Source: an uncultured Spirochaetaceae bacterium (GTDB lineage: Bacteria > Spirochaetota > Spirochaetia > SZUA-6 > DRHE01). Taken from it: a stretch of 34,829 nt of DNA. Positions 5,315-23,143 of this stretch are shown in pieces (position 1 is the first letter of the stretch; each line of letters starts with the position of its first letter). Where the stretch lies: positions 1 to 34,829 of the forward strand of contig CAZKCQ010000004.1 in the NCBI GenBank assembly GCA_964551205.1. Direction: 5' to 3'. The position numbers were made by a program, and so were the translations under genes. Under the pieces are notes generated by a model. It did no database searches. It was not told where the DNA came from and worked only from the letters and a program-made list of their open reading frames with translations.

Positions 5315-6043
5315 CTACCGGGCGTATAGTCGGTTGGAAAGAGGATCGAAAGCAACCTTCTTGCCCGGTTCGATCATCAGAAAATCATCACTATCCCACT
5401 CGCCGTTCACAAAACGTTCGAGGAGATCGGGACTTCCGCAATGCTCTTCGTATTTCAAGTTTCGATTCAAGCGGTTGCTTAGGTTGCTTTGGCACTCCCG
5501 AGTGTACTGCTTAGTTCTCCTGGCCACCTGCTCACCAAGCTCTTCCCAGTAGATGCAGGCCAGATGCGTATAATTTTCCATCAGAACCTGTTCAACCACC
5601 TCTCTCGAACTCTCGTCGATCGGGCGGCCATAGAAGTTCCGGTATTTCTCCAGATAGTCGCTTCCTCCCGGCAGCGGGAATCCCTCAATCCATCCGTATG
5701 AATACCAGAAGATCCCGGGCCTACCCGCAACCAGTTGAATATGCCGCTGTTTGTCGCCTAAAAGGAGCGGAATACAGTCGGAGCAATTGTGCATCACCGT
5801 GGGCAGACCTGGGTGGAAGAGGTCGAGGATTCCTTTTCCACACAAACCATAGTTGAGCAGAACAAAGTCGTAATCCGTGGAATCGATTCTACCAAGAGCT
5901 TCTATAAGAGTCCTCTGAAGCTTATTCGGAAACTCGTGAAGACCCTGATCAATGAACTCGACATCTATCAAATTCGGCGAGCGGGATACGGCAAATTGGA
6001 GCTCGCGTCTCATCACAGCACAGGAAATTATTTTCAGCCGCAT
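5315..6043 (-). CDS. DUF1638-like protein (corrinoid-methyltransferase-associated family)
   Basis: 242 aa. The start MRLKIISCAVMRREL, then NYGLCGKG and HNCSDCIPLLLG, match my memory of DUF1638 proteins. Cysteines lie at 8, 68, 87 and 90. The gene starts 27 nt after the permease stop with AAGG upstream. Being a CDS is secure; the family call is from memory only. Confidence 0.6.
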   Translation of the reverse strand: MRLKIISCAVMRRELQFAVSRSPNLIDVEFIDQGLHEFPNKLQRTLIEALGRIDSTDYDFVLLNYGLCGKGILDLFHPGLPTVMHNCSDCIPLLLGDKQRHIQLVAGRPGIFWYSYGWIEGFPLPGGSDYLEKYRNFYGRPIDESSREVVEQVLMENYTHLACIYWEELGEQVARRTKQYTRECQSNLSNRLNRNLKYEEHCGSPDLLERFVNGEWDSDDFLMIEPGKKVAFDPLSNRLYAR

Positions 6044-6070
6044 AGTTCGCCTTCGTTTCGCAGGGTGAGA

Positions 6071-6910
6071 TTATTGCCCGGCCAGGGATCCTGCAATCAA
6101 ACCCTGAACGAGGTACCGCTGGGCGAAGATGTACAGAATGAGCATAGGCGCTGTCGCCACAGCCATCCCCGACATGATGAGAGGAATATTGATACTGAAC
6201 CTCCCGTGGAACAAAGCCAGGCCGACCATCAGAGTACGCAGTTTTTCCCGCTGCAGAAAGATAAGAGCGACCAGTAGCTCGTTCCAGACATAGAGGGAGC
6301 AAACCACGAACATCGAAAGAAGGATGGGTTTGGACAAGGGTAGCATGATACGCAGGAAGATTCCGAAGCTTCCGCACCCGTCGATAAGGGCGGAGTCAAT
6401 CAGGGGCTGCGGAATGGTTACAAAGAAACTTCGCAATAGATACATGGAAAAGGGGAGAAACATCCCGATGTAGACAATGATTGCTGATGGGTAGGTGTTA
6501 ACCAAACGAACCCTCGCCATGAGCACGAACAGCGGGATAATCATTACAATCGTCGGGATGACCATTAATGCTATTGATGAGTTAATCAGTAACTTTTTTC
6601 CGGGAAAATACATCTTGCTTAAAGCATAAGAGGCCAGAGCACTGATGAAAAGGCAGATAACCACGGTTGTAGCGGTGAGAAGAAGACTGTTGTAGAACCA
6701 TCTTAAGAAGTTCGGTGTAGTGAAAATCTGTGAGAAATTGGCAAAAACCAGTGACGGAGGGAGGGACAGGGGATTATCCGCATAGGCCGATCTGCTCTTC
6801 AAGGCGTTTGTGAAAATGTAGTAGATCGGATAACAGGTCACCACTGCCATGAATAGCAGGAGTAACTGTTTCACGCCATATCCGACCGCTGATTTAATAT
6901 TTATTCTCAT
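6071..6910 (-). CDS. ABC transporter permease, CUT1 MalG-like (importer copy 1)
   Basis: 279 aa, 6 TM. EAA loop LIDSALIDGCGSFGIFLRIMLPLSKP, and WNELLVALIFLQREKLRTLMVGL is shared with the other three MalG-like permeases in the window. Confidence 0.9.
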   Translation of the reverse strand: MRINIKSAVGYGVKQLLLLFMAVVTCYPIYYIFTNALKSRSAYADNPLSLPPSLVFANFSQIFTTPNFLRWFYNSLLLTATTVVICLFISALASYALSKMYFPGKKLLINSSIALMVIPTIVMIIPLFVLMARVRLVNTYPSAIIVYIGMFLPFSMYLLRSFFVTIPQPLIDSALIDGCGSFGIFLRIMLPLSKPILLSMFVVCSLYVWNELLVALIFLQREKLRTLMVGLALFHGRFSINIPLIMSGMAVATAPMLILYIFAQRYLVQGLIAGSLAGQ

Positions 6911-6932
6911 CGCTCCCTCTTCACACCAAGCA

Positions 6933-7850
6933 TCAGTATTCCTCCGCCAATTTTTCCCGGAATCTGTAGGAAATAACGATGAAAATAATGGTAATGATGA
7001 GCAGGATCACCGCGGCTACGGTAGCATGGCCCATGCGGTTGTAGTGGAAAGCCTCTTTGTAGATGTAGAACTCGGTGATCCAGGTCTTGTACCCAGGTCC
7101 ACCGTTTGTCATCACGAAGATGAAGGCGAAAATCTGGCTCAACATCACGATGATGTTCAAGGTCACGAAAAACTCGATCACCGTGCCAAGTTCCGGAATG
7201 ATGATTTTCCCGAATCTTCTCCACCAGCCGGCGCCGTCGATTCGAGCCGCTTCGATGATCCCTTCAGACATGGAGCTCAATCGAGCTAAAAACAGGATGA
7301 CCCCGAATCCGGTCTGCCGCCAGATAATGACCGCTGATATTGTCGGCAGTGCCCAACTCGGATCTACGATCCACTGTTTCTTTATGAAACCCAGCCCAAC
7401 AAGAGTGAGGATCTGATTGAAACCGCCGTTCAGGGAGAAAAAATTCGACATCGCGAATCCGATGGCCACGATCGGGATCACATAAGGTGTAAGTACCAGG
7501 CTTCTGTAGACCTTCCAACCGTGTACGTGGTCGTTGATAACCACCGCAAGTACAAGAGCGATCAAGGTCATGACGGGAACGTTCATTAGCAATAGAATGT
7601 TGTGGTATAACGATTGGAAGAACCGTTCATCCTGGAACACGAGGCGATAATTGCGCAATCCGACAAATTGCCTCGGAGTTTTCAAAAAATCCAGCAGGCT
7701 GAAGCGGCATACCTCCACCACCGGGTAGAAATAGATGAATCCTATTACCAGAAATGCCGGGAGAAGATAGGTGAATGGTTTAAGCGAAAATCTGCTTCCC
7801 CGCAGCAGTGGATTTGATGCGAACCTGTTCATTATTGATAATTTGGGCAC
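6933..7850 (-). CDS. ABC transporter permease, CUT1 MalF-like (importer copy 1)
   Basis: 305 aa. EAA loop IIEAARIDGAGWWRRFGKIIIPEL. GTG start with GGAGGAGGG 9 nt upstream; ATG 7832 is an alternative start. Confidence 0.9.
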   Translation of the reverse strand: MPKLSIMNRFASNPLLRGSRFSLKPFTYLLPAFLVIGFIYFYPVVEVCRFSLLDFLKTPRQFVGLRNYRLVFQDERFFQSLYHNILLLMNVPVMTLIALVLAVVINDHVHGWKVYRSLVLTPYVIPIVAIGFAMSNFFSLNGGFNQILTLVGLGFIKKQWIVDPSWALPTISAVIIWRQTGFGVILFLARLSSMSEGIIEAARIDGAGWWRRFGKIIIPELGTVIEFFVTLNIIVMLSQIFAFIFVMTNGGPGYKTWITEFYIYKEAFHYNRMGHATVAAVILLIITIIFIVISYRFREKLAEEY

Positions 7851-7856
7851 AATGAG

Positions 7857-7888
7857 ATTCCCTCCTCCTTTCTATCGGAGGAGGGAAT
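7857..7888 (-). promoter_or_regulatory. 12-bp stem-loop between SBP1 and its permease gene that sequesters the permease SD
   Basis: ATTCCCTCCTCC (7857..7868) pairs perfectly with GGAGGAGGGAAT (7877..7888) around an 8-nt loop. On the mRNA the 3' arm is the GGAGGAGGG Shine-Dalgarno of the gene starting at 7850. Confidence 0.55.
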
Positions 7889-7924
7889 GCTCATATTAAT
7901 CAAGCGATTTCCAATACAGATAAC

Positions 7925-9277
7925 CTACTTGTATTTGTCCGCATCCTTCTTCCACTCGGCGGCGATTCTCTTGAATCGCTCCAGAGCTTCCGGGAACTCT
8001 CTTCGCCACTTCACAGCCGCATCTTCGTACCTCTGGGCTGCTTCGGCCGCGGAAATGTCACCGATCGATAACAGCTGGGCCGATGCCCAAACCTCGCTTT
8101 CGATCTGCGGGACATAGTGCTCGTTGTACGTGTAGTTCGGCACCTCAACGACCCACTTGGCCATAAGCTTGTCGGCGCTGGTCATTATGTCCAGGCTTAC
8201 TTTGTCGCTGGCCTGTATGGCCCCGCTCTGTTTGTACATAGCGGCTATTCGTTCCTCGGAATGGAGATATCGCAAGAAATCCGCCGCTGTTTCCGGATGC
8301 TTACTCAGCTTGGCTATTCCCAAAGGCATGGTGTAGAAGGGCATACGGCCCGCGAGTTTCCCGGGATTCGGCGGAGTTGGGGAGATCATGACGCTGACCG
8401 AATCTTCACCCAATTCCTTGATATACCCGTTAACCATGGATTGCACGGCAAACACCATCCCGACTTTTCCGTTCAAGTATTTATCGTTTCCCTCGGCAAA
8501 ACCGACCGATGCAGCGTCTTCGTTGAACAGCCCCTTATTTATAAGCTCTTCGATCCTGTACCAAAAGTTTGAATGTTTGGGATCGGTGAAGTGCTGGATC
8601 CCCATCACCGCTTCGTGTAGATCGGACATATCGTCGAGGTTTTGAATCCCCACCAAACATGCCCACCAGACACCCATATAGCCATCCTTGAATCCGCAGG
8701 AGAAGGGCGTAAAGCCGCCCGTGTCCAGTTTTTCCAGTGCACTTACAAAGTCGTTCCACTGCTGCGGCGGGCTGTCGGGATTCAATCCGACCTCTCGATA
8801 GATCTTAGGATTCAAGACTGTTAACCAGGCACCTCCGTAAAGCGGAACGAGCCAGGTGTGCCCGTCCCAGCTGAGCTCTCGTCGTGCAGGTGGAGAGATA
8901 TGGGCTAATTCCTCTTCACTCCAATACTCATCGACAGGTACGATATTCCCGGCTTCCGAACCGTCCATTCCCTGCTGCCTGCCGAACAGTTGAATATCCG
9001 GAGGAGTTCCAGCAGCAAGTTCTGCCTTCCACACTGTGAACAAATCTTCGATCGGTATTTCCGGAGCTTCGACAGTTATGTTGGGATTCTGTTGTTGATA
9101 TAGCTCAGTAGATTCTTTCATCCAGGCAGCCATACCGGGGGCTTCACCATCTCCCCACCAATAACAGCGAATTTCGATCTTTTCCGCTTCCTGGCCTCCG
9201 CCGGAGAACACCGGTACGCTTAGGAAACAGAGCCCTACAACCAGCGCGATGCCAGCCAACAACTTTTTCCTTTCCAT
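7925..9277 (-). CDS. ABC transporter substrate-binding protein, family 1 / CUT1-type (importer copy 1)
   Basis: The track ORF 7925..9484 is trimmed to ATG 9277, which has AGGAGG 6 nt upstream and opens a signal peptide MERKKLLAGIALVVGLCFLSVPVFSGGGQE. It aligns end to end by eye with SBPs 13485..14855 and 21812..23143. Confidence 0.9.
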   Translation of the reverse strand: MERKKLLAGIALVVGLCFLSVPVFSGGGQEAEKIEIRCYWWGDGEAPGMAAWMKESTELYQQQNPNITVEAPEIPIEDLFTVWKAELAAGTPPDIQLFGRQQGMDGSEAGNIVPVDEYWSEEELAHISPPARRELSWDGHTWLVPLYGGAWLTVLNPKIYREVGLNPDSPPQQWNDFVSALEKLDTGGFTPFSCGFKDGYMGVWWACLVGIQNLDDMSDLHEAVMGIQHFTDPKHSNFWYRIEELINKGLFNEDAASVGFAEGNDKYLNGKVGMVFAVQSMVNGYIKELGEDSVSVMISPTPPNPGKLAGRMPFYTMPLGIAKLSKHPETAADFLRYLHSEERIAAMYKQSGAIQASDKVSLDIMTSADKLMAKWVVEVPNYTYNEHYVPQIESEVWASAQLLSIGDISAAEAAQRYEDAAVKWRREFPEALERFKRIAAEWKKDADKYK

Positions 9278-9295
9278 CCCACACCTCCTATAGTT

Positions 9296-9309
9296 TGATA
9301 ACGTTGCCA
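9296..9309. promoter_or_regulatory. LacI-family operator-like palindrome TGATAACGTTGCCA
   Basis: 14-bp CG-centred near-palindrome of the TGnnAACGTTnnCA type. It shares 1 nt with the TATAAT box of the SBP1 promoter. Confidence 0.6.
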
Positions 9310-9339
9310 TTATACTATCATATATTTGCAATTTGTCAA
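9309..9339 (-). promoter_or_regulatory. Candidate promoter of importer copy 1
   Basis: On the minus strand: TTGACA (complement of 9334..9339), 19 nt spacer, TATAAT (complement of 9309..9314). Both hexamers are perfect but the spacer is long. Confidence 0.45.
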
Positions 9340-9347
9340 GAGAATAA

Positions 9348-9361
9348 TGATAACGTAGCCA
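9348..9361. promoter_or_regulatory. Second operator-like site TGATAACGTAGCCA
   Basis: It differs by one base from site 9296..9309. The two centres are 52 bp apart, and this site lies 8 nt upstream of the -35 box. Confidence 0.5.
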
Positions 9362-9372
9362 ATTATCGTTCT

Positions 9373-10206
9373 TTATGACCCGGAGTATAGAGTAACGGTC
9401 AGCTCTACTTCTATTGGGAAAGGCTTTTGAGCGTACGGCTTCATCAGGATGAAAGGAGAGTCCCAGGCCCGAGACCAGTTCCATTCCCGGATATCGCTGG
9501 TTTCGGTGGTTACTTCCATATCTTTGACCATGGCCAGGTGCTCATACACTCCGGGACTTGAAAAATAGCAGTAGTGGCCGAAACTGCAGCGATGCAACCT
9601 CTCTGGATCTTCCTTTTCCGGGTAATTGAACCAGACAATCTCGAATGCGATGGGCCGTGGAGTTGGCTTCATGTCAAGAACCTCCAGCCGGAGATGGTAG
9701 ACACCGTCTGCATAGCTAACCGGTGCCGCCCAATTCATCGGTACGTTAATGGGGTGATCCACTTCCATGATGAAATCCCAGTCGTCGTAGAGGATGTTTT
9801 TTCCCTCGAAAGTATAGGTCCCCTTGAGAAATGTGAAAGATTGCAGCGCTTCCTGTCCGGTTATTCCTTGCAACCGCTTGGTTTCGCTCAATCGACCGTC
9901 AGCCAGTCTTGCCAAAGCCTCCTCCCCGGTGCCCGGGAAACCGCTGTACACCTTCACCCCCCGGTAAGCCAGTAGATTCATACACTGAGGATGGATCTTC
10001 CCGCAAATCACGGTATCCACATCCTTGTCGAGGAAGACGGCGACTGCCTGTGCACCAACGAAATCCTCCCGGTTCCTACAGCAATTCAAAATGCAATCGA
10101 TTTCATTCGTCCCTGAATCATAGATCAGATAATAGATCGCACTGGCAAAATCCTTCGTGATGTTCTCAGTAAGTATCTTACCGATCGCCGGTATCCCTAC
10201 TCTCAT
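9373..10206 (-). CDS. NifX/NifB-C-like (dinitrogenase FeMo-cofactor-binding fold) domain fused to an unknown ~170-aa C-terminal domain
   Basis: Residues 1 to about 105 (MRVGIPA...DFASAIYYLIYD...VDTVICGKIHPQCMNLLAYRGVKVYSG..GTGEEAL) follow the pattern of small NifX/NifB-C-like proteins. The remainder (FTFLKGTYTFEG...LHRCSFGHYCYF...VELTVTLYSGS) is unrecognised. AGGAGG lies 5 nt upstream of ATG 10206. Confidence 0.65.
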   Translation of the reverse strand: MRVGIPAIGKILTENITKDFASAIYYLIYDSGTNEIDCILNCCRNREDFVGAQAVAVFLDKDVDTVICGKIHPQCMNLLAYRGVKVYSGFPGTGEEALARLADGRLSETKRLQGITGQEALQSFTFLKGTYTFEGKNILYDDWDFIMEVDHPINVPMNWAAPVSYADGVYHLRLEVLDMKPTPRPIAFEIVWFNYPEKEDPERLHRCSFGHYCYFSSPGVYEHLAMVKDMEVTTETSDIREWNWSRAWDSPFILMKPYAQKPFPIEVELTVTLYSGS

Positions 10207-10234
10207 AATTCCTCCTTCATTCTCCGATTAGAGT

Positions 10235-11539
10235 TTATTCTAAACCGAGCCCTTCGATCTTCGAGACAGCCCAAAGCGCTCGGTTTCGAACCGTTGCGTG
10301 CAGGTCGTGAGCTGCTTGCCACAAATGTGGAAGCACCGGCTTGGCGCAGGCAGGGATACTTCCCAGACATTCGGCAGCCAGAAATCGCAGATCCGACTCG
10401 ACATCAGAGAGCATAGACACAAGTGTATCAACTTTGCTCTCTCCTTCTTCGGCAACCTGCCCAAATGACCACAGGGCCGCCCAGCGCGCTTCTATTTCGG
10501 GGTGAGTTACACCCTGGACTTCTTCCATAAATCGGGCCAGCTGCTCCGCAACCTCTGTCCCCCCTTTCCCGGTCCACCCCAACGCCCAGGCAACCCGAGC
10601 CCGAACCGGGCAATCCTTCCGCCCGAGGACGCCGAGGAGCTCCGATACCGCAACTGAAGAGCCATACCCGATCTTACCCAAAGCCTCCGCAGCGGTTCCC
10701 TGAATTTCAGGCTCCTGGTTATGCAGGAGTCCAACGAGAACCGGTATCTGTTTGAAGCCGCTCGGTCCCAGATCACCGATATCCTCGATAGCCTGAACTC
10801 CCAAATCCATTCCATTCTCATTTTTGCTTTTGGCCGCAGAGTCTCCGGATGCTCCTGCATTAAAACCGTCTTGGGGGAGATCCGAGAACAACGGGGACTG
10901 CCCATCCGTTTCTTTCCAGGTTGGTTCAATCTCTCCCAGAGTACGAGCTGCCTGGAAGCGTAGGATGGGGTGCGAATCGGACAGGCACGCTTTTACCAGC
11001 GGTATAGCGGCCTGCGCCGCCCTCCCGATTCTCTGCAGAGCCCAGACCGCAACCAGGCGGTGGGAGACGTCCCGCTGCGCAACAACCCGCATCAGCTGGG
11101 AAACCACCTGCTTCGCCGGAGCGGCGATTTCTCCCAATGCCCAGACCGCAGCCCACGAGGCGTGGGAGTCGACGTCCCATATTGAAGAGATCAAGCGCGG
11201 AACAGCAGCAGATGCCTTCTGGCCCGCTCTTCCCAAAGCATAAGCGACTCGGGCGTTAAAATCAGTTTCGTCTTTTCCCTCCAGCATCTCCGCCAGGATG
11301 GGAATTGCATTACTTTGAAAAGCGCCAATCTTGCCTAAGGCCTCGGCGGCTGTGCCACGGACATCACCATCCCCGTCGGCCAGAAGAGGATGAAGAAGGG
11401 ATAAGAGCTCATCTTCGTTCGGGTACAGCTCTCCAAGCTGCCAGGCCGCTTCCACTCGGCTGAGACGATGTTCTGACCTGGTTTTTCGGCAGATTTCCTC
11501 GAATGTCTCCAAGAGCAATCCTCTGGGGTAATTCTTCAT
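10235..11539 (-). CDS. HEAT-repeat protein, PBS-lyase HEAT-like type (paralogue 1)
   Basis: 434 aa with about 11 repeats of the form D.d..VR..AAeALGkIG....aiP.L (e.g. DGDVRGTAAEALGKIGAFQSNAIPILAEML). Two repeat blocks are split by a low-complexity linker (..SDLPQDGFNAGASGDSAAKSKNENG..). The gene starts 15 nt after the permease stop. Confidence 0.85.
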   Translation of the reverse strand: MKNYPRGLLLETFEEICRKTRSEHRLSRVEAAWQLGELYPNEDELLSLLHPLLADGDGDVRGTAAEALGKIGAFQSNAIPILAEMLEGKDETDFNARVAYALGRAGQKASAAVPRLISSIWDVDSHASWAAVWALGEIAAPAKQVVSQLMRVVAQRDVSHRLVAVWALQRIGRAAQAAIPLVKACLSDSHPILRFQAARTLGEIEPTWKETDGQSPLFSDLPQDGFNAGASGDSAAKSKNENGMDLGVQAIEDIGDLGPSGFKQIPVLVGLLHNQEPEIQGTAAEALGKIGYGSSVAVSELLGVLGRKDCPVRARVAWALGWTGKGGTEVAEQLARFMEEVQGVTHPEIEARWAALWSFGQVAEEGESKVDTLVSMLSDVESDLRFLAAECLGSIPACAKPVLPHLWQAAHDLHATVRNRALWAVSKIEGLGLE

Positions 11540-11554
11540 AAAAGCAACCCGGTC

Positions 11555-13319: not shown

Positions 13320-13419
13320 CTGCGACCTTCCTTTTCTGCATTTTTATCTAGGGAGAGAACACCTGTTCAACCAAATCGATCTTATCTACCCGATGCTCTC
13401 CGGAACACCCGATTGGAAC

Positions 13420-13444
13420 AGCCCCCTCCTCAGAAGAGGGGGCT
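13420..13444 (-). promoter_or_regulatory. 9-bp GC-rich stem-loop in the SBP2-permease spacer
   Basis: AGCCCCCTC (13420..13428) pairs with GAGGGGGCT (13436..13444) around a 7-nt loop. No U-tract follows on the mRNA. Confidence 0.4.
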
Positions 13445-13484
13445 ATTGTTAATGAGGCATTCTCTCATCAAGAAACAGGTTCTG

Positions 13485-16337: not shown

Positions 16338-16988
16338 TCAACTCTTGCCAACAAGTTTTTTGCAGAGGTTGATGGCTCGTAGAGCATCCGGAGCAAACCC
16401 GTCTGATTCAACCTCATTGGCGTACTCCTGGGTAATCGGCGAGCCGCCGACTATGACCTTGGCCTTACCTCCGCTGCCCCGAATGGCCTTGATCGCCGGC
16501 TTCATGGCCAGCATGGTCTGGGTCAGCAGGGCGGATAGGCCGACGATATCCGCCTTGTCCTTGTTAGCTGCATCCACAATCTCCTGGATCTTCGCATTGA
16601 CTCCCAAATCGTTCATGCTGAAGCCCGCAGCCTCGAGCATCATGCTGACCAGATTTTTGCCGATGTCGTGTACATCCCCTTCCACCGTGGCGATGACGAT
16701 CTTCCCAAGAGATTCTCCGCCGCCGGCTTGCTCCCAATACGGTTTCATCAGCTCCGTGGCCGCCTTCATGGCTTTGGCAGACAGGATCACTTCAGGAAGC
16801 CACATCTCGTAGGCTTTGAACCTCTCTCCCACAACATCCATGCCCGCAACCAGACCCTCCTTCAGGACCTTCTGAGGCTCCGTGCCCTTGTCCATAAACT
16901 CCTTGGTTAGCGCAGTTGCCTTCTGTTCATCTCCCGAAATTATCGAAGCTTTCAATTCTTCAAACATGCTGTTGTCCTCCATACTCAT
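16338..16988 (-). CDS. Methyltransferase-cognate corrinoid protein (B12-binding cap + Rossmann domain)
   Basis: 216 aa. An N-terminal helical cap is followed by the B12-binding motif set GDVHDIGKN (DxHxxG), SALLT (SxL) and VIVGG. Size and layout match MtgC/MttC/MtaC-type corrinoid proteins. Confidence 0.9.
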   Translation of the reverse strand: MSMEDNSMFEELKASIISGDEQKATALTKEFMDKGTEPQKVLKEGLVAGMDVVGERFKAYEMWLPEVILSAKAMKAATELMKPYWEQAGGGESLGKIVIATVEGDVHDIGKNLVSMMLEAAGFSMNDLGVNAKIQEIVDAANKDKADIVGLSALLTQTMLAMKPAIKAIRGSGGKAKVIVGGSPITQEYANEVESDGFAPDALRAINLCKKLVGKS

Positions 16989-17011
16989 GATTTCTCTTCT
17001 TTTTGTCCTGA

Positions 17012-18445
17012 TCAGATCTCGAGTTTCAGGCTCTTCTCGAGTGCTTTGTCCTGCTTGGCCCGCTCGTAGATCCTGTCGAGTTCCTTTTTCACATCCCGGT
17101 CAATCTCGTAGCTGTGCTCGGCAACCAGCTTTTGAGCGATCTCCCGCGCCTGCTGGCGAATCGATTTCTGACCCAGCTCGATCCACTGGCCCAGATTCGA
17201 ATGTTCGAACAGTTGAGGCATCCAGTACTCCTTGCGAAACATCTCGTAGGTGCTATTCTTGTCGACATAGGTGCCTCCCGGTCCTACATCGATGATGTCC
17301 TGGATCATCAGACGTTCCTCACTGAACTCCTCTTCCTTGAGGACGTTCCGGATGTACTGCAGCATCTCATCCAGTATCACCACCCATTCACCGCTGTAGA
17401 TCTCTCCGGTCGACAGCAGCCCGCCGCAACGAAAGGCCCTTGCCCCAGCCAATCCCGCGATCAAGGTGTGGATACCCATCTCAGCCGCGGCGTGGGCATC
17501 CGGCTCCTGGGAACTGGTCAAAAGGCTCTTTACGATAATAGGTAGGTCGTAATACTTGCACAGAGCGATCTGATGCAGAGAGTGCTGTACGTACTCCACC
17601 GATCCGTATACGAAGGTGGTGTACTTCATGCTGAAAGTGTTGGCTTCAAAGGCATCGTTGGGGGAGATGTAGTTGTTCCCCTTGGGGTTCATCAGGTACA
17701 GTACGGTCAAGCCAGCAAAATGCTCGTACATGCTCTGCAATACCGTTCCCAGAATGGTTATCGGGGCGGTAACCCCCGCTTGAGGCATGGTTGCCAACCA
17801 CATCGGGATGCCCTTATCCCGCAACCTGAAGGCCACATCGAGGTTGTGCGCGTCGAAGGACTTGGGACTGATCATCCAAATCCCGAAGGTGAAGCGTTTT
17901 CCCGCGGCTTGGGCCATCTCGTACACATAGTTGGCGCACTCGTAGGAGGGCTTATCCATGTGCTCAAAGATGTCGTTGCAGCGGTAACGTGAGTTCTCCC
18001 AGGCCGCTTTGTGCATTAGAATGTGCTGCAGATGCCCTGGCACATCCATCGGTACCACCGGCGCCGAGCCCACTGTGTCCAGGGCATCCCCAAGTTTGAT
18101 AAATTTCACCAGGTCATCAGCCGAGGCCTGTTTCAGCTTCCCCGTATCCAGATCGTAACAGGCGGTCTGATGGGCTCCGGCGGACATGAACCACTTGCCC
18201 CGCTTGTAGTACTCCGGAACATCGTAAACCGCAGCAGCCATGGCTTTCTGAACCAGATCCGGTTTAAATCGCACCATTTCCCCGTCAATTGTCACACCGT
18301 TGTGATCGGCCATCAGCTTCAGAACACCCTCATGGGGGACCTGGATACCGGAGGTTTCGATTAGCCACATGGCTTTTTCGTGCATATAGTCGATCTGTTC
18401 TTTCCGCAAGCCCCCCGCAAGCTCAAAGTTTTCTAATTTCATCAT
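17012..18445 (-). CDS. MttB-family (trimethylamine methyltransferase superfamily) methyltransferase, non-pyrrolysine, paralogue 1
   Basis: 477 aa and uninterrupted, with no in-frame TAG. The N-terminus L..EQIDYMHEKAMWLIETSGIQV...VRFKPDLVQKAM and the C-terminal ..GTYVDKNSTYEMFRKEYW...LGQW fit the MttB-family pattern. AAGGAG lies 5 nt upstream of the ATG. Confidence 0.85.
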   Translation of the reverse strand: MMKLENFELAGGLRKEQIDYMHEKAMWLIETSGIQVPHEGVLKLMADHNGVTIDGEMVRFKPDLVQKAMAAAVYDVPEYYKRGKWFMSAGAHQTACYDLDTGKLKQASADDLVKFIKLGDALDTVGSAPVVPMDVPGHLQHILMHKAAWENSRYRCNDIFEHMDKPSYECANYVYEMAQAAGKRFTFGIWMISPKSFDAHNLDVAFRLRDKGIPMWLATMPQAGVTAPITILGTVLQSMYEHFAGLTVLYLMNPKGNNYISPNDAFEANTFSMKYTTFVYGSVEYVQHSLHQIALCKYYDLPIIVKSLLTSSQEPDAHAAAEMGIHTLIAGLAGARAFRCGGLLSTGEIYSGEWVVILDEMLQYIRNVLKEEEFSEERLMIQDIIDVGPGGTYVDKNSTYEMFRKEYWMPQLFEHSNLGQWIELGQKSIRQQAREIAQKLVAEHSYEIDRDVKKELDRIYERAKQDKALEKSLKLEI

Positions 18446-18478
18446 CTCTTCTCCTTCTCATACCATTATCCTGACGGA

Positions 18479-19906
18479 TTAGTACTGCCGTTCTTTGGCC
18501 AGTGCTTCGTCCTTAGCCGCGATTTCGTAGATCCTGTCCAGCTCGCGTTTTTTCTCCGGCTCGATCTCGTAGGCATGTTCTTTCAAGAGCTTCTTTGCCC
18601 GCTCATTGGCAATCTGTACGAAGCTCTTCGAGCCCATCTCCTGCCACTGTCCCAGATTGGAATGAAGAAATACGTTGGGATCCCAGTACAGGGTTCGGTA
18701 ATGCTTGAAGGTGCTGGGGTGTTCGAGAAAGCTCTCCCCTGGTTTGATCTTGGCAATGGCATCAAACAGCAGCATCTCGTCGCTGAACTCCTCTGGTTCC
18801 AAGACATTTTTGATGTACTGAACGATCTCGTAGTCAAGCACGAGCTTTTCAGCGGCGTACACCTCGGCGCTGGTCAACAGGCCACCGCAACGGAACTCCT
18901 TGGCTCCGGCCAGAGCCGCCATCAACGTGTACATGCCCACCTCCGCTGCACACTGCGCGTCCACCTCTTTAGCTGCTGTGAGCAGTGATTTTGCCGCCAG
19001 CGGCATCTTCAGGTGCTTGTGGATCGACAGCTTGTCAACCGTGGCTCGCACGTCCTCTGCGGAACCGTACACGAAGGTGGAGTATTTCATGTCGAAGGGG
19101 TGGGCGATAAAGCTGTCGATGATCTGGATATAGTTGTAGCTTTTGGTGTTCAGAAGGTTCAGCATGGTAAGACAGGCGTAGGTCTCGAACATGGCCTGCT
19201 GGATCCCCGCCTTTTCGGTAATCGGGGAATTCACGCCCATGATCGGCATGGTGCCGGCCCACATGGGAACGCCCTTGTCTAGAAACTTATCGATGATTTC
19301 CAGCTCCACGACATCGAAGGAACGCGGGCTCACCATGTACAGGCCAAGGGCAAACCACTTGTCGGCGATCTTAGACATCTCGTAGATGTACTCGGCGCAG
19401 CGAACCGTCGGTTTCGGGTCATGCTCGAACATATCGTTCGCCCGGCGCCGCGAGTTCTCCCAGGCAACTTTATGCATCATGATCTCCTGGAGCTGGATCG
19501 GTACGTCCATCGGTACCACCGGAGCCGATCCCACCGTGTCCAGGGCATCACCGATTTTGATCATCTCGACCAAGTCTTTATGGGTGGTTTCCCGGATCTT
19601 TCCTGTGTCCATGTCCAAGATCTTTGTCTGGTGAGCCCCGGCGGAGATCACCCAACCGTCCTCGTAGTAATCGGGCAGAGGGAACCTCATCTCCTGGATG
19701 GCTTTGATCACCAGATCCGTGCGGAACTTCACCATCTGGGAGGTTTTGTCTATGGTGACTCCGTTGATGCCATGCAGGCGGTTGAGCAGTCCCTCGTGAG
19801 GAATGTGCAGGCCGACTGTCTCTACCAGCTCGATCGCTTTGTCCCGCATCAGATCGATCTGTTCGGGCCTCAGACCTCCCGCCAGGGTGTAGGCGTGTAA
19901 CATCAT
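18479..19906 (-). CDS. MttB-family methyltransferase, non-pyrrolysine, paralogue 2
   Basis: The track ORF is trimmed to ATGATG at 19906, which has AGGAGG 8 nt upstream, giving 475 aa. It shares AGAHQT, GDALDTVGSAPVVPMDVP, MHKxAWENSR, MKYxTFVYGS, FRCGGLL and HSNLGQW with paralogue 1. Confidence 0.85.
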   Translation of the reverse strand: MMLHAYTLAGGLRPEQIDLMRDKAIELVETVGLHIPHEGLLNRLHGINGVTIDKTSQMVKFRTDLVIKAIQEMRFPLPDYYEDGWVISAGAHQTKILDMDTGKIRETTHKDLVEMIKIGDALDTVGSAPVVPMDVPIQLQEIMMHKVAWENSRRRANDMFEHDPKPTVRCAEYIYEMSKIADKWFALGLYMVSPRSFDVVELEIIDKFLDKGVPMWAGTMPIMGVNSPITEKAGIQQAMFETYACLTMLNLLNTKSYNYIQIIDSFIAHPFDMKYSTFVYGSAEDVRATVDKLSIHKHLKMPLAAKSLLTAAKEVDAQCAAEVGMYTLMAALAGAKEFRCGGLLTSAEVYAAEKLVLDYEIVQYIKNVLEPEEFSDEMLLFDAIAKIKPGESFLEHPSTFKHYRTLYWDPNVFLHSNLGQWQEMGSKSFVQIANERAKKLLKEHAYEIEPEKKRELDRIYEIAAKDEALAKERQY

Positions 19907-19964
19907 CTGTCTATCCTCCTGTCTGTCTATGTTGATTCTGTTGCTGGTTATCCTTGATTTTCCG

Positions 19965-20840
19965 CTATCCTTTGATTGCACCGGCTACCAAGCCTTTTAC
20001 AAAATACTTCTGCGTAAATATGTAGAGTAGGAGGATCGGCAAGATCCCGGAAACCAGACCAGCCATTATCGTTGGCACATTGACCGTGTATCGCCCCTGA
20101 AGAAGGGTTAATCCGACCATCAGTGTTCTCAGTTTTTCTCGCTGAAGAAAAATCAAAGATATCAAAAATTCGTTCCAAGCCCATAGCACGTCATAAACCA
20201 CGAGAGTCATAAGCGCAGATGCCGACAAGGGGATCATGATGCTACGATAGATGCGAAAGCTCCCACATCCATCGATTAGCGCAGAATCCAAGATCGATTG
20301 TGGAACGGTGATGAAATAGCTGTACAGCAGGTATACGTTAAAGGGCAACAATACACCGATATAAATTACTATCACACTTATATATGAATTATTCAATCTG
20401 AATCGGCCAAAGAGCACGAAGAGAGGGATAATCATTACAATAACGGGTATCACCATTAAACTGATTACTGAATTTAAGATAAGCCTCTTACCCTTGAATT
20501 CCATTTTGCTGATGACAAATCCTGCCATCGAACTGAAAAATAGACAGAGCAGGACTGAAGCCACGGTAACAATCAACGTATTTGTCAACCATCTTGGGAA
20601 CTTCTCGCCAAAGAACACTTTTCTATAAGCATCGAATACGATTCCAGGCGGTAAACCGATTTTATTCGAATTGTATTCAATTTTCGTTTTAACCGAGTTG
20701 ACAATCACAAAATACAGTGGATACAGCGATAAAATTGTCAGTGTGATCAGGATCAGGTGCTTCACAACACCGGTTCCCAGTTTCTTTGCTCTGCGCAACA
20801 TCCGTTCTGAATCGATGCTCCTACGAACTGCTTTCCTCAC
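19965..20840 (-). CDS. ABC transporter permease, CUT1 MalG-like (importer copy 3)
   Basis: 291 aa. ILDSALIDGCGSFRIYRSIMIPLSAS and WNEFLISLIFLQREKLRTLMVGL. GTG start with AAGGAG 8 nt upstream (AAGGAGAAG 5 nt upstream). It overlaps the upstream gene by 20 nt. Confidence 0.9.
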   Translation of the reverse strand: MRKAVRRSIDSERMLRRAKKLGTGVVKHLILITLTILSLYPLYFVIVNSVKTKIEYNSNKIGLPPGIVFDAYRKVFFGEKFPRWLTNTLIVTVASVLLCLFFSSMAGFVISKMEFKGKRLILNSVISLMVIPVIVMIIPLFVLFGRFRLNNSYISVIVIYIGVLLPFNVYLLYSYFITVPQSILDSALIDGCGSFRIYRSIMIPLSASALMTLVVYDVLWAWNEFLISLIFLQREKLRTLMVGLTLLQGRYTVNVPTIMAGLVSGILPILLLYIFTQKYFVKGLVAGAIKG

Positions 20841-21711: not shown

Positions 21712-21755
21712 AATAAATCTCAACAACGTTGGAAGGTTGTTTCCTATTGACAGGC

Positions 21756-21779
21756 GGGGGTATTGAAAACAATACCCCC
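21756..21779 (-). promoter_or_regulatory. 10-bp stem-loop in the SBP3-permease spacer
   Basis: GGGGGTATTG (21756..21765) pairs with CAATACCCCC (21770..21779) around an AAAA loop. A T6 run (21785..21790) follows only when read on the plus strand. Confidence 0.45.
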
Positions 21780-21811
21780 AGCCGTTTTTTCTACAATTTC
21801 CTCAGACAGAT

Positions 21812-23143
21812 TTACTTGGAATGTTGCATCCAGTCCAAAGCGGTTTTCCGGTATACTTCAACTGCATCAGGATTTTCTCTTCGCCATTTTGCAGCCGATT
21901 CATCCATCTGCCGGGCTGCTTCCTTTGCATCGATTTCACCGACAATTAGCAGTTGCCCGATGCCATAGCTGTCCGCGTCAATCTGGGGTGTGTAATGCCA
22001 GTTGTAGGTAAATGTTGTTGACTCGAGGAACCACTGCGCGTATTGCCTATCCACTTCAGACTTAGCTGAACCCGGTTCGAATAGCGTGCTTGCCTGCATC
22101 GCACCGCTCTTGTCATACAGAGCCTTCACTCTCTCTTTCGTGAGCAGTAATTTCAAGATATCAGCGGCGACATCGGGATGCGGGCCATTGGCCAGGGCCA
22201 AGGGCATCGGCGTGATCGGGATACTACCTGCGACTTTGCCGGTGATGGGGGGTAACGGAGTCTTCATCGCCCCGACCGTGCCATCCCCCATCTGTGCAAC
22301 ATAAGCGGCCGCAACAGGTTGGACTACAAATCCAAAAGCAATATTGCCGGTATAGAAGAGATCGAGTCCTTCGCCCAATCCAATCGAAGCGGCATCTTTG
22401 TTTATATAGCCATTGTCTCTCATCACTTCGATTATTTTCCACCAATCTCCGTGCTTTGGATCGACAAAACGCTGCTCCCCCAAAACTGCCGCATGCAGGT
22501 CTGCTGCGTCATCGAGGCATTGAATCGCGATCGTATTGAAGAGCCATGGGCTCATGTACCCGTCCTGCCAGCCGATACCCAATGGCACTTTCCCGGTTTT
22601 TTTGATCCTTTCAGACATCTCAATGAGCTCATCCCAATTCTTCGGTGGACTCTTGATACCCACATCCGCAAAGATCTCTTTGTTGTATACCATCCCCCAG
22701 GCTTCCATGTATTCCGGAACCATCCACACGTGACCTTCCCAGCCAAGCTCGCGTTGGGCAGCGGGCAAAATTGTATCCACCTCTGCTTTGCTCCAGAAAT
22801 CGTCAATCGGCAGAATATCCCCTGCCTGGGAAGCATCGATCCCCTCTTGTCTTCCCATAAGGATCACATCGGGTGGGTCGCCGGCAGCAACCGCAGCCAT
22901 CCACGATTGTTGAAGATCATCCATAGGGATTTCCGTTGGTTCCACGGTAACGTTCGGATGGGCTTTTTCATAAATCTCGGCGGATTCGTTGTACCAATCG
23001 TTCATTCCCGGTGCAACGACTTCTCCCCACATCCAGATTCTGATATCCACCTTCTCAGTCTCTCCCTGGGGGGTAGAAAACAGTGGGCCGATGGAGCAGA
23101 TCATGCAAATGACGATCAAACTAACCATGATTGTTCTCTTCAT
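21812..23143 (-). CDS. ABC transporter substrate-binding protein, family 1 / CUT1-type (importer copy 3)
   Basis: 443 aa with signal peptide MKRTIMVSLIVICMICSIGPLFSTPQGE. GAGGAGG lies upstream of the ATG. It is collinear with SBP1 and SBP2 but more diverged. Confidence 0.9.
   Translation of the reverse strand: MKRTIMVSLIVICMICSIGPLFSTPQGETEKVDIRIWMWGEVVAPGMNDWYNESAEIYEKAHPNVTVEPTEIPMDDLQQSWMAAVAAGDPPDVILMGRQEGIDASQAGDILPIDDFWSKAEVDTILPAAQRELGWEGHVWMVPEYMEAWGMVYNKEIFADVGIKSPPKNWDELIEMSERIKKTGKVPLGIGWQDGYMSPWLFNTIAIQCLDDAADLHAAVLGEQRFVDPKHGDWWKIIEVMRDNGYINKDAASIGLGEGLDLFYTGNIAFGFVVQPVAAAYVAQMGDGTVGAMKTPLPPITGKVAGSIPITPMPLALANGPHPDVAADILKLLLTKERVKALYDKSGAMQASTLFEPGSAKSEVDRQYAQWFLESTTFTYNWHYTPQIDADSYGIGQLLIVGEIDAKEAARQMDESAAKWRRENPDAVEVYRKTALDWMQHSK

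Follow-up and report, generated by a model that had tools for sequence, protein, structure and literature searches.

All characterised substrates of the MttB superfamily are TMA or quaternary amines, phosphocholine included, with no carbohydrate among them; choline, which is modified by MthK and then demethylated by MthB, provides a precedent for alteration of the compound ahead of demethylation. The DNA analysed here (34,829 nt, hereafter the window; CAZKCQ010000004.1 positions 1 to 34,829, forward strand, assembly GCA_964551205.1) comes from an uncultured sediment spirochaete (Spirochaetota; Spirochaetia; SZUA-6; DRHE01) and pairs MttB-family genes with sugar-type importers, a combination that recurs widely in metagenomes and for which no description was found in the literature. 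The locus most likely represents an undescribed uptake-plus-corrinoid-demethylation system built on sugar-type importers.

Three collinear copies of a substrate-binding protein (SBP)–permease–permease module were found on the minus strand, in agreement with a preliminary description of this DNA: module 3 (SBP3, 21812-23143; permA3, 20821-21711/21726; permB3, 19965-20840), module 2, which lies between two HEAT genes (SBP2, 13485-14855; permA2, 12411-13319; permB2, 11555-12427), and module 1 (SBP1, 7925-9277; permA1, 6933-7850; permB1, 6071-6910). Pfam placed SBP1-3 in SBP_bac_1/8 and the six permeases of these modules in BPD_transp_1, and NCBIfam described the module 3 permeases as UgpA/UgpE/MalF/MalG/GlcTU-like. 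Pairwise identities between the modules ran from 42 to 59% (42-56% for the SBPs over ~443 residues, 45-58% for the MalF-like and 50-59% for the MalG-like permeases), a likeness far above chance which, judged from the sequences, is paralogy. The earlier count of three modules was too low, as the window holds at least four; the fourth lies at its right end on the minus strand (permB4, 32663-33532; permA4, 33538-34422; SBP4 C-terminus, 34499-34829; Pfam), with more divergent permeases (38-47% identity with the module 1-3 permeases) and an SBP that runs off the right end, so that only its C-terminus, carrying the C-terminal motif of the SBP family, is inside. An AlphaFold2 model of SBP3 (pLDDT 88) gave oligosaccharide SBPs as its best fold matches, and the best structural matches of the SBPs were binders of chitin-, xylo-, raffinose- and malto-oligosaccharides; in fold and sequence searches the SBPs came out alongside ordinary binders of oligosaccharides, with ≤21% identity, and no ligand emerged.

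CUT1 systems commonly share one ATPase (MsiK, MsmK, MsmX), and an ATPase-free operon is normal for them. A six-frame motif scan and Pfam agreed with the earlier statement that no long ORF of the window is an ABC ATPase: all six frames were without Walker A or an LSGGQ signature, bar one LSGGE (isolated, without Walker A, in a frame interrupted by a stop codon just upstream), and ABC_tran had no Pfam match in the window. This lack is ordinary for CUT1 operons and was the same in every relative examined.

Two adjacent minus-strand genes, MttB_a (18479-19906/19981) and MttB_b (17012-18445), belong to the non-Pyl MttB superfamily (Pfam MTTB, 162 bits for 18479-19981 and 172 bits for 17012-18445), with Leu at the pyrrolysine position and no in-frame stop. 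They are 52% identical to each other and only ~22% identical to MtgB, whose glycine-betaine site is not conserved in them: the two aromatic residues that enclose the trimethylammonium group in MtgB are absent in either alignment. At or beside positions where MtgB contacts its substrate stand R339, an Arg without variation, and E348, a Glu that is nearly invariant. The cognate corrinoid protein CoP (16338-16988, minus strand; Pfam B12-binding_2 and B12-binding; MtgC-like in NCBIfam, under cut-off) carries the DxHxxG motif as DVHDIG. Its stop codon abuts, with a 0 nt gap, the start of HEAT3, a cytoplasmic HEAT/PBS-type repeat protein (14958-16337, minus strand; Pfam HEAT_2) that is 35% identical to the second such protein, HEAT2 (10235-11539, minus strand; Pfam HEAT_2); both resemble the tetrapyrrole-handling CpcE/F and NblB, far under cut-offs. 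The NifX–β-sandwich fusion (9373-10206, minus strand) matched Pfam Nitro_FeMo-Co over residues 14-101 only, the remainder being an unclassified β-sandwich domain with a conserved H-x-C-x3-H-x-C…H motif; in its AlphaFold2 model (pLDDT 83.5) the N-domain matched TM1290, ORP, PH0822 and TM1816, and elsewhere the C-domain is joined to extracellular carbohydrate-type architectures. A further gene encodes a DUF1638 protein (5315-6043, minus strand; Pfam DUF1638, 79.8 bits), a family whose genetic link to RamA-type corrinoid reactivation is already published (PMC5764234, PMC12478193). Pfam thus put every ORF in the family named beforehand, and together with the identities it confirmed the collinear modules, both MttB proteins, the corrinoid protein, both HEAT proteins, the NifX-like fusion and DUF1638.

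Gaps of 15-58 nt had been reported after each second permease, and we measured 15 nt from permB2 to HEAT2, 27 nt from permB1 to DUF1638 and 58 nt from permB3 to MttB_a when the latter starts at its MLHAY methionine; the longest MttB_a ORF instead overlaps permB3 by 17 nt. The modules do adjoin these genes, but the idea of one cargo per module holds only to that extent: HEAT2 and HEAT3 overlap by 4 nt in a close two-module relative without module 2 (L039), and module 1 alone among the modules has its own promoter and operator within the island.

A tightly spaced co-directional gene array runs on upstream of 23143, up to 29087, and the functional island reaches ~32.6 kb. M24a, a Creatinase_N plus Peptidase_M24-like hydrolase (23264-24409, minus strand; Pfam), precedes SBP3 here and in L031 and L039-L042. 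Upstream of it on the minus strand are genes for a PDH/acetoin-type 2-oxoacid dehydrogenase, namely E2 (24458-25678/25753; Pfam Biotin_lipoyl, E3_binding and 2-oxoacid_dh; lipoyl motif ETDK), E1β (25695-26672; Pfam Transket_pyr/Transketolase_C) and E1α (26701-27726; Pfam E1_dh), which NCBIfam typed as PDH with E1β over the subfamily cut-off and which have no E3 with them (24458-27726). M24b, a divergent Peptidase_M24-fold hydrolase (27732-29087, minus strand; matched by Pfam Peptidase_M24 over the N-terminal half alone), probably opens the long transcription unit, and its orthologues (74-84% identical) head the cluster in relatives. Beyond it lie a GFO/IDH/MocA oxidoreductase (29274-30332, minus strand; Pfam; IolG-like in NCBIfam, under cut-off), a divergent LacI-family regulator (30520-31575, plus strand; Pfam) and a Zn-ADH (31609-32637, minus strand; Pfam). 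In L001, L002, L004 and L010 the cluster is bordered by GFO and LacI, and the Zn-ADH orthologue is embedded in the clusters of L002, L005, L006, L007 and L010. These neighbours resemble genes for the breakdown of sugars or cyclitols.

The LacI-type operator pattern TGNNAACGTTNNCA occurred at 7 sites in the window against 0.94 expected, all but one of them in three promoter regions, the exception being located just within the 5' end of lacI. The operators upstream of SBP1 (9296-9309 and 9348-9361) flank a sigma-70-like promoter (9339-9312; promoter scan) and recur in L030, L032-L034 and L039; the two upstream of M24b (29117-29183) stand beside a TTGACA…CTTAAT promoter-like site and have equivalents in L001, L002 and L004; two more lie at GFO/LacI (30349-30362 and 30493-30506). 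In L030 the pattern stands upstream of an MttB gene and in L026 ahead of the HEAT–SBP2 unit, and it marks the promoters of the island both here and in relatives. A GC-rich hairpin without a T-tail lies between SBP1 and permA1 (7858-7887, minus strand), with equivalents after SBP2 (13420-13444) and SBP3 (21756-21779), an anatomy common to modules 1, 2 and 3 that would be usual for stem-loops distal to the SBP gene in ABC operons. No cobalamin riboswitch or other Rfam family was found in the window.

The predicted gene order SBP–permease–permease–MttB–MttB–CoP–HEAT was conserved in full in L039-L042 and in parts in L026-L037. In L039-L042 (MttB 93-94% identical) the order is collinear minus module 2, reading M24a–SBP3–perm–perm–MttB–MttB–CoP–HEAT–HEAT–NifX–SBP1–perm–perm–DUF1638, so that CoP–HEAT–HEAT–NifX are contiguous. 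Parts of it are repeated in L031 (M24a–SBP3–perm–perm–MttB–MttB), L033 (NifX–SBP1–perm–perm–DUF1638), L026-L029 (HEAT–SBP2–perm–perm–HEAT), L052 (SBP2–perm–perm–HEAT) and L036/37 (M24b–E1α–E1β–SBP–perm–perm–NifX). In L031, L039 and L045 the orthologues of module 3 (87-95% identical) are placed as they are here, and those of module 1 (88-92% identical) keep their neighbours in L032-L034 and L039. MttB_a and MttB_b are neighbours in the relatives keeping the cluster (L002, L004-L008, L010, L031, L039, L042, L045), HEAT3 follows CoP in L004, L039 and L045 as well, the DUF1638 gene keeps its position in L033 and L039, and full-length NifX-fusion homologues adjoin the SBP family in L030, L032-L034, L036/37 and L039. 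Modules have been gained and lost among close relatives; the closest, L004, has the MttB cluster without a module between M24a and MttB_a, so module 3 is dispensable. The module 4 type is the usual transporter partner of the MttB pair in most relatives, with permA4/permB4 orthologues (61-85% identical) after MttB–MttB–CoP–SBP in L002, L005, L006, L007 and L010. Spirochaetota and Actinomycetota MAGs at a greater distance carry M24–E1–E1–UroD–E2–M24–ADH–MttB–MttB–CoP–SBP–perm–perm; GFO and LacI are close by. Members of the SBP1-3 clade are very rare, with 13 clusters at ≥45% identity among 5.8 billion proteins, and of the contigs retrieved for it that had sufficient flanking sequence, most bear one or more of the other island genes. 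Across the wider SBP clade (27-36% identical) the pairing extends to other, distant MttB subfamilies: an MttB-family gene was present in 32 of 50 informative loci, and within 1.5 kb in 17 of the 24 with both flanks, counts that overstate independent cases because many metagenome loci are probably one species resampled. Other genes that keep reappearing at these loci are a URO-D-like gene, M24, SDR, DUF4432, LacI and a class-III aminotransferase.

The preliminary idea of uptake plus demethylation held against both the profile assignments and the neighbourhood conservation in relatives. We lean, if only slightly (probability roughly 0.55), towards the whole region being a single LacI-controlled catabolic island for an imported, methylated, hydroxyl-rich ("sugar-like") compound or a small set of related ones. 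These would be captured by the secreted family-1 SBPs and imported through the paralogous CUT1-type permease pairs, powered by a shared MsmK/MsiK-type ATPase encoded elsewhere, with modules 1, 2, 3 and 4 perhaps differing in specificity or affinity inside one substrate class. In the cytoplasm the divergent MttB_a/MttB_b pair would demethylate the substrate, its methyl group going to Co(I) of the neighbouring CoP, from which a methylcorrinoid:acceptor methyltransferase would pass it on. As seen, the system is incomplete, with no MT2, RamA-type activase or ATPase within the window; the missing MT2, noted earlier, is a trait of this lineage's own cluster, as relatives carry a URO-D-family gene inside theirs, which may be the acceptor methyltransferase that this host would encode elsewhere in its genome. 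GFO, Zn-ADH, both M24-fold hydrolases and the E1–E2 module (ThDP/lipoyl) could alter the substrate before demethylation or break its skeleton afterwards. An accessory part would fall to DUF1638, the two HEAT proteins and the NifX–β-sandwich fusion, most plausibly maintaining or loading CoP or handing over ligand. Counting against this reading are the incompleteness of the system, the exclusively amine-type substrates of characterised MttB proteins, the ordinary oligosaccharide binders that the SBPs resemble and the dispensability of module 3.

The same architecture could instead serve a classical substrate, a polar-headgroup quaternary amine (for instance glycerophosphocholine, a compound of the phosphocholine type or the headgroup of a deacylated betaine lipid), taken up by a UgpB-like CUT1 system. 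We consider this unlikely, although it would fit the substrates of all characterised MttB relatives, the best or near-best matches of the permeases to UgpA/UgpE, the weak match of SBP2 to UgpB, the presence of UgpB among the Foldseek matches, a GDPD fragment downstream of the transporter in L001 and the positions of R339 and E348; novelty would then be confined to the kind of transporter and to an MttB specificity not seen before. Against it stand the absence of the aromatic pair of MtgB, the lack of an intact glycerophosphodiesterase, kinase or phosphatase in the window or the conserved cores, and the sugar- or cyclitol-type character of the conserved partners (LacI, GFO/IolG-like, IolM/Tdh-like ADH) and of those in the wider clade (DUF4432, SDR, AP_endonuc_2).

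Quite improbable, in our view, is adjacency without coupling, in which ordinary sugar importers of a LacI-regulated island merely surround an embedded, independent methylamine system of MttB and CoP. The oligosaccharide binders at the top of the structural matches and the LacI, GFO and ADH genes typical of sugar catabolism would suit it, as would L004, with no module directly upstream of its MttB genes, and L026-L029, where module 2 has no MttB gene within reach; yet the pairing recurs in two phyla, across SBP clades ~30% identical and MttB subfamilies ~25% identical, a clade as rare as SBP1-3 still keeps other island genes on most adequately flanked contigs, and the operator pattern recurs ahead of an MttB gene (L030) and of the HEAT–SBP2 unit (L026). 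Known corrinoid importers are of the BtuFCD type, which the CUT1 modules do not resemble, and this weighs against the very improbable alternative that the extra modules with HEAT, NifX-like and DUF1638 proteins bring in or handle a corrinoid, a precursor or a metal complex. That proposal draws on the CpcE/F and NblB resemblance, the metal cofactors carried by NifX-like domains (with fold matches to ORP and TM1290), the tie of DUF1638 to corrinoid reactivation and the positions of module 2, flanked by the two HEAT genes, and of module 1, flanked by NifX and DUF1638. It is countered by the lack of a riboswitch, by wider-clade SBPs that pair with MttB genes without HEAT, NifX or DUF1638, by the paralogy of the modules to modules 3 and 4, which adjoin catabolic genes, and by the carbohydrate-type associations of the NifX-fusion C-domain. 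With uptake and demethylation of sugar-like compounds as the preferred reading, the pairing of sugar-type importers with MttB points to a new class of methylated, sugar-like nutrients.

A Pfam profile search of the open reading frames (ORFs) of the window, which is a complete contig of 34,829 bp, bore out all of the family assignments that the preliminary description had made by eye. Each of modules 1-3 was found to consist of a CUT1 family-1 solute-binding protein (SBP) with a signal sequence, a MalF-like permease (permA) and a MalG-like permease (permB), all encoded on the minus strand: SBP3 (21812-23143), SBP2 (13485-14855) and SBP1 (7925-9277, within a longer ORF reaching 9484) match SBP_bac_1/8 and the six permeases match BPD_transp_1. 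In the AlphaFold2 model of SBP3, residues 1-27 are disordered and hydrophobic. Pairwise identities computed over full length (42-56% among the SBPs, 45-58% among the MalF-like and 50-59% among the MalG-like permeases) agreed with the proposed paralogy of the three modules, and the permeases' nearest NCBIfam families are UgpA/UgpE, MalF/MalG and GlcT/GlcU, all below equivalog cut-offs. The importer had been called triplicated; the three paralogous modules stand, with a fourth to be added at the right end of the window, where Pfam and translation identify permB4 (32663-33532), permA4 (33538-34422) and the C-terminal 110 residues of SBP4, running to the window end, all on the minus strand and followed by a Zn-ADH gene (31609-32637, minus strand). 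The module 4 permeases are 38-47% identical to those of modules 1-3. Recent tandem duplication of the modules was considered and rejected, as separate orthologues, 74-91% identical, exist in other metagenomes for each of SBP1, SBP2 and SBP3, and the triplication is therefore old.

The reported lack of an ABC ATPase held in a six-frame search, in which Walker A and LSGGQ signatures were absent; because the only trace was one isolated LSGGE without Walker A, its frame interrupted by a stop codon just upstream, we conclude that the window encodes no ABC ATPase. No ATPase gene was found beside the modules in any relative examined. CUT1 importers usually share one ATPase encoded elsewhere (MsiK, MsmK, MsmX). 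A GC-rich hairpin without a T-tail follows each SBP gene; because the coding strand has no T-tail after them, these hairpins were treated as non-terminators, and such hairpins would be usual in ABC operons where the binding protein is over-expressed. The SBP3 model (pLDDT 88) gave Foldseek matches to chitin-, xylo-, raffinose- and malto-oligosaccharide binders and to UgpB, at 21% identity or less. By profile alignment, the signature motifs of the SBPs, WWGExEAPG and GxxDGYMxxW, correspond to the D14/K15 and E153/Y155/W158 ligand loops of MalE, a placement that shows the motifs to be ligand-specific without naming the ligand. Attempts to discriminate a sugar from an amine ligand by PDB sequence search, AlphaFold2/Foldseek and MalE alignment all returned a generic oligosaccharide-type SBP.

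The remaining genes of the island were assigned on the minus strand as two MTTB-family methyltransferases, MttB_a (18479-19981 as the longest ORF) and MttB_b (17012-18445), a corrinoid protein, CoP (16338-16988; B12-binding_2 plus B12-binding), two HEAT_2 proteins, HEAT3 (14958-16337) and HEAT2 (10235-11539), a 277 aa NifX fusion (9373-10206) in which only residues 14-101 match Nitro_FeMo-Co, and a DUF1638 protein (5315-6043). The intergenic gaps quoted previously were correct on recomputation, while the limit of the array at 23143 was not upheld: genes for an M24-fold hydrolase (M24b), E1α, E1β, E2 and a second M24-fold hydrolase (M24a) precede SBP3 from 29087 to 23264, with gaps of 5-120 nt along the M24b-E1α-E1β-E2-M24a-SBP3 array. 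Upstream of M24b, Pfam identified a GFO/IDH/MocA oxidoreductase (GFO) and then a divergent LacI regulator. E1β exceeds its PDH subfamily cut-off and E1α and E2 fall below the equivalog cut-offs; no E3 of a 2-oxoacid dehydrogenase was found in the window. The longest ORFs at 7925-9484, 18479-19981 and 24458-25753 over-extend upstream into the NifX fusion, permB3 and E1β respectively, and homologues favour internal starts, namely 9277, 19906/19909 and 25678. The recorded MttB_b gene is of 476 aa, against 477 aa for the ORF here; differing start codons probably account for this mismatch, and for a similar one in MttB_a.

M24a (23264-24409) and M24b (27732-29087), with motifs compared by eye, seem to be missing several of the metal ligands canonical for M24, a trait of creatinase too, and M24b matches the first half of the Pfam M24 domain only. 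After the DUF1638 gene lie genes for a TPR protein and an SDH-type (ClpP-like) serine protease (3347-5172), whose synteny is kept in the related loci L039-L041, with the TPR protein also syntenic in L032. An ORF at 2266-3204 has a weak match to the EamA family, the transporter type of the Eubacterium limosum choline (MthB) cluster, and another at 1259-1957 has a very weak integrase-core (rve_3) match and is possibly a transposase remnant; synteny with L039 stops near here.

MttB_a and MttB_b are 52% identical and adjoin one another in relatives that keep the cluster. Both match the MTTB profile (PF06253) over its full length, scoring 171.8 and 161.7 bits where the cut-off is 25, and profile matches in the PDB were to MttB (7xcl) and MtgB (9yce/2qne) at E values of 1e-30 to 1e-33; against solved structures of MttB and MtgB, the matches of MttB_a and MttB_b reach only E ~1e-20. 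Neither ORF is interrupted by an in-frame UAG, and the pyrrolysine position aligns to Leu309; of 122 subfamily members, 71 have Leu there and 47 have Asn. The residues of MtgB that contact glycine betaine are Y97, R312, H348 and F356 (PMC13080624). Relative to MtgB, to which the window enzymes are ~22% identical, Y97 is replaced by Ala91, R312 by Ile, Val or Met and F356 by Gly347 or Glu348, leaving no aromatic residue at that position under either alignment, and H348 falls on the invariant Arg339 or on Cys/Thr340, as HMMER and MAFFT differ by one position. The alignments thus identify MttB_a and MttB_b as putative non-Pyl MttB-superfamily enzymes that are not glycine betaine methyltransferases. 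A zinc site for ether activation (Cys340/Glu348) in the MttB pocket was also considered and rejected, as Cys340 is Thr in 47 of the 122 subfamily members.

A substrate:corrinoid methyltransferase (MT1) and its cognate corrinoid protein adjoin here, with 23 nt between MttB_b and CoP, whose B12-binding_2 and B12-binding domains carry the DxHxxG motif as DVHDIG. Domain searches agreed with the preliminary description that partners are missing: no methylcorrinoid:acceptor methyltransferase (MT2), whether URO-D/MtaA-type or pterin-binding MtgA-type, was found among the window ORFs, and no ferredoxin plus DUF4445 domains of a RamA-type reductive activase in the window. Relatives L001-L003 carry within the cluster a URO-D-family gene, which we take to be an MtaA/MtbA-type methylcorrinoid methyltransferase, and this gene is absent from that place in the window and its closest relatives. 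An Rfam search of the window gave zero matches, and hence no cobalamin riboswitch.

The window's MttB subfamily was found at only 22 loci in a scan of one genome per species, mostly in Spirochaetota MAGs with some Actinomycetota MAGs, and many isolates bear names suggesting an origin in sediment, a cold seep or a vent; the best match was in Spirochaetales bacterium CSMAG_2727 (90% identity). Distant members share the order (LacI) (GFO) M24b–E1α–E1β–UroD–E2–M24a–ADH–MttB–MttB–CoP–SBP–permA–permB. Because the permeases of these distant clusters are orthologues of permA4 and permB4 (61-85% identical), with an SBP that is ~34% identical to SBP1-3, module 4 is the usual partner of the MttB pair; its orthologues come directly after MttB–MttB–CoP in most relatives, whereas in the window it is separated from that pair, so that the window lineage has rearranged the cluster. 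The SBP1-3 clade is itself very rare, with 13 clusters at 45% identity or more among 5.8 billion proteins.

The gene order SBP-perm-perm-MttB-MttB-corrinoid protein-HEAT, conservation of which had been proposed as a check, is present in L039-L042, whose MttBs are 93-94% identical to those of the window. These loci read M24a–SBP3–perm–perm–MttB–MttB–CoP–HEAT–HEAT–NifX–SBP1–perm–perm–DUF1638–TPR–SDH-protease, which is the window order minus module 2, and their HEAT genes overlap by 4 nt. The earlier view that each importer copy carries its own cargo is thus not sustained: CoP–HEAT–HEAT–NifX is one accessory block, and module 2 is interposed between the window's HEAT genes. Other relatives keep parts of the arrangement, namely E1β–E2–M24a–SBP3–perm–perm–MttB–MttB (L031), HEAT2–NifX-fusion–SBP1–perm–perm–DUF1638 (L033), HEAT–SBP2–perm–perm–HEAT (L026-L029), a divergent MttB gene followed at some distance by SBP1–perm–perm–MFS–NifX-fusion (L030) and M24b–E1α–E1β–SBP–perm–perm–NifX-fusion (L036/37). 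In L004, with an MttB 90% identical to that of the window, M24a is followed directly by MttB_a and module 3 is absent. Judged by these gene orders, modules have apparently been gained and lost around a stable core among close relatives.

A metagenome scan with the SBP alignment, using the family motifs WWGExEAPG and GxxDGYMxx, gave beyond the SBP1-3 clade 67 loci of a wider clade, whose SBPs are 27-36% identical to SBP1-3 and whose permeases are mostly 37-53% identical. Among the 50 wider-clade loci flanked on one side by 1.5 kb or more of sequence, 32 carry an MttB-family gene, and among the 24 having both flanks, 17 have one within 1.5 kb, counts that are not independent because many of the loci are probably one species sampled repeatedly. 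The MttB gene is often divergent and upstream, with a second often downstream, and the MttBs are of other subfamilies, 22-27% identical to the window MttBs and 32-36% to MtgB. Recurrent neighbours are a divergent URO-D-like protein directly after permB (23 loci), SDR (20 loci), DUF4432 (20 loci), a Creatinase_N plus M24 hydrolase (14 loci), LacI (10 loci), a class-III aminotransferase (8 loci), a fucose-isomerase-like protein (7 loci) and an AP_endonuc_2 protein (6 loci). Named members include freshwater Actinomycetota, and in these loci the pairing of transporter and MttB extends over two phyla or more and over several subfamilies of the transporter as well as of the methyltransferase. The evidence for linkage is strong, and function is read entirely from sequence and gene context. 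The M24 proteins of this clade match the full Pfam model at 164-166 bits. The protein encoded after permB is of ~395 aa (e.g. L090 4425-5612 and L107 13068-14333) with a weak, partial URO-D match (E 5e-7), and might represent a divergent family of methylcorrinoid methyltransferases that serves these transporter–MttB loci specifically.

Three kinds of accessory protein accompany the core. The DUF1638 (PF07796) protein scores 79.8 bits against a cut-off of 27; in Phaeobacter inhibens, DUF1638 mutants are methionine auxotrophs and the family co-occurs with a RamA-like activase (PMC5764234), and in Ruegeria DUF1638 and RamA are co-induced with MtgBCD (PMC12478193). The split methionine synthase of P. 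inhibens, with its RamA-like activase, likewise has DUF1638 at the operon end and a link to corrinoid binding, and its published genetics connect DUF1638 with corrinoid-dependent methyl transfer, whereas in the window DUF1638 follows an ABC permease rather than a corrinoid protein and there is no RamA-like gene. The literature searched on DUF1638 yielded nothing relevant beyond two papers. The HEAT proteins score 42-46 bits against CpcE/F and NblB, where the NCBIfam equivalog cut-offs are 300-330, and have the repeat type (HEAT_2/HEAT_PBS) alone in common with phycobilin-lyase-type proteins. The NifX fusion is rare (10 clusters); its N-domain (PF02579, residues 14-101) scores 41.7 bits against 26.3, with Foldseek matches to TM1290, ORP, PH0822 and TM1816 at target TM-scores of 0.76-0.81. 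Its C-domain (9373-9864) is a β-sandwich of no Pfam family, with a conserved H-x-C-x3-H-x-C…H motif and only 38 representatives among 1.8 billion proteins, and its fusion elsewhere to FG-GAP propellers, CHB_HEX_C, fn3 and T9SS tails or sorting domains suggests a ligand- or carbohydrate-binding module, apparently undescribed. DUF1638, HEAT and NifX-fusion proteins might help to load or reactivate the corrinoid, or to hand over the ligand.

A LacI/CcpA-type operator, the palindrome TGNNAACGTTNNCA, was counted 7 times in the window, where 0.94 would be expected, and 0 of 100 shuffles reached 7. Six copies lie in three intergenic promoter regions, upstream of M24b (29117, 29170), between GFO and lacI (30349, 30493) and upstream of SBP1, where those at 9296 and 9348 flank a TTGACA-16-TAGTAT promoter; a seventh copy, with one mismatch (30593), lies just inside the lacI 5' end. 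Relatives have the operator in equivalent positions: ahead of SBP1 (L030, L032-L034 and L039), ahead of M24b (L001, L002 and L004), before the HEAT–SBP2 unit in L026 and before the divergent MttB gene in L030. This enrichment of a palindrome with central CG at promoters beside a lacI gene defines a candidate LacI-family regulon. Overall, scanning for terminators and promoters gave results no higher than background, and only the operator-flanked promoter and the post-SBP hairpins were retained from them. We predict one long transcription unit from ~29200 to the NifX fusion (9373) and a second comprising SBP1–permA1–permB1–DUF1638, which perhaps extends through the TPR and protease genes; a single repressor would control the two units.

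In its predicted mode of working the system resembles three-component corrinoid methyltransferase systems that are already known (MtgBCA, MthBCA and relatives). The MtgB/MtgC/MtgA system of Desulfitobacterium hafniense (MtgBCD in Ruegeria) likewise has a non-Pyl MttB-superfamily MT1 beside a B12-binding corrinoid protein, but the window has two MT1 paralogues instead of one and a CUT1-type ABC importer, not BCCT or Opu. The choline (phosphocholine) demethylation cluster MthB/MthC/MthA/MthK of E. limosum, in which MthK modifies the substrate before demethylation (PMC12155760), also combines an MttB-family MT1, a corrinoid protein and a transporter, but its transporter is EamA-type, its modifier is a kinase, an MT2 is included and there are no sugar-type regulators or oxidoreductases. 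By analogy, MthK offers a precedent for M24, GFO and ADH proteins that could act before or after the MttB step. With CUT1 systems (TC 3.A.1.1; MalEFG, UgpBAE) the window shares an SBP with two permeases, an operon without ATPase, the oligosaccharide-SBP fold and the post-SBP hairpin, while its SBP clade has signature motifs of its own on the canonical ligand loops and is linked to MttB genes, not glycoside hydrolases. What appears new from these comparisons is the MttB specificity group, the CUT1-like partner transporter as opposed to BCCT, Opu or EamA, and the accessory genes. No description of an MttB–CUT1 pairing was found in the literature searched (sugar ABC transporters, inositol, neighbourhoods, methylated sugars), and the sole paper found on MttB in Spirochaetota concerns a speculative link with mercury methylation.

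The conserved partners of the window cluster (LacI, an IolG-like GFO, an IolM/Tdh-like ADH, M24 hydrolases and a ThDP/lipoyl E1–E2), to which the wider clade adds DUF4432, SDR, aminotransferase and AP_endonuc_2, look, as families, more like sugar or cyclitol catabolism than betaine catabolism, and the substrate is most likely, on this gene context, a hydroxyl-rich methylated compound. The moc locus of Sinorhizobium for the rhizopine 3-O-methyl-scyllo-inosamine also unites an SBP-dependent importer, a MocA/GFO-type oxidoreductase and demethylation, a functional logic like that of the window's importer, GFO and proposed demethylation, and the AP_endonuc_2 (MocC/IolE-like) and aminotransferase genes of the wider clade add to the likeness; the moc locus demethylates via the oxygenase MocDE, whereas the route proposed for the window is corrinoid-based. 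The main alternative is a polar quaternary amine, for example one with a glycerophosphocholine-type headgroup. To our knowledge, only a handful of non-Pyl MttB substrates have been established, all of them small quaternary amines or TMA. A 48-aa fragment of a glycerophosphodiester phosphodiesterase (GDPD) lies just downstream of the transporter in L001 (15661-15807), a faint hint that may point towards a glycerophosphodiester-type substrate. That the window's MttB subfamily, together with the MttBs paired with the same SBP clade, demethylates carbohydrate-like substrates and not betaines is a tentative reading, to which we give a chance of roughly one in four; candidates would be cyclitols, aminocyclitols and (amino)sugars in methylated form, along with other methyl donors that bear a polyol.

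Anoxic sediments, soils, fresh water and guts harbour very large numbers of non-pyrrolysine MttB homologues. A recognisable clade of sugar-type SBPs beside MttB genes, at many loci in at least two phyla, offers a route to MttB substrates, and a purified binding protein is far easier to screen, by DSF or ITC, than an O2-sensitive three-component methyltransferase. If the ligand proved to be a conventional quaternary amine, the system would remain new in its transporter type and its MttB specificity group, with three accessory proteins still to be explained. Methylated sugars and rhizopine are known to be demethylated by oxygenase routes (P450, MocDE), to which demethylation of carbohydrate-like substrates by these MttBs would be an O2-independent corrinoid counterpart, with the HEAT pair and the NifX–β-sandwich fusion as new accessory factors for corrinoid methyltransferase systems. 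Should the ligands be methylated carbohydrates or cyclitols, they would represent a new substrate class for corrinoid methyltransferases and an unrecognised anaerobic C1 source.
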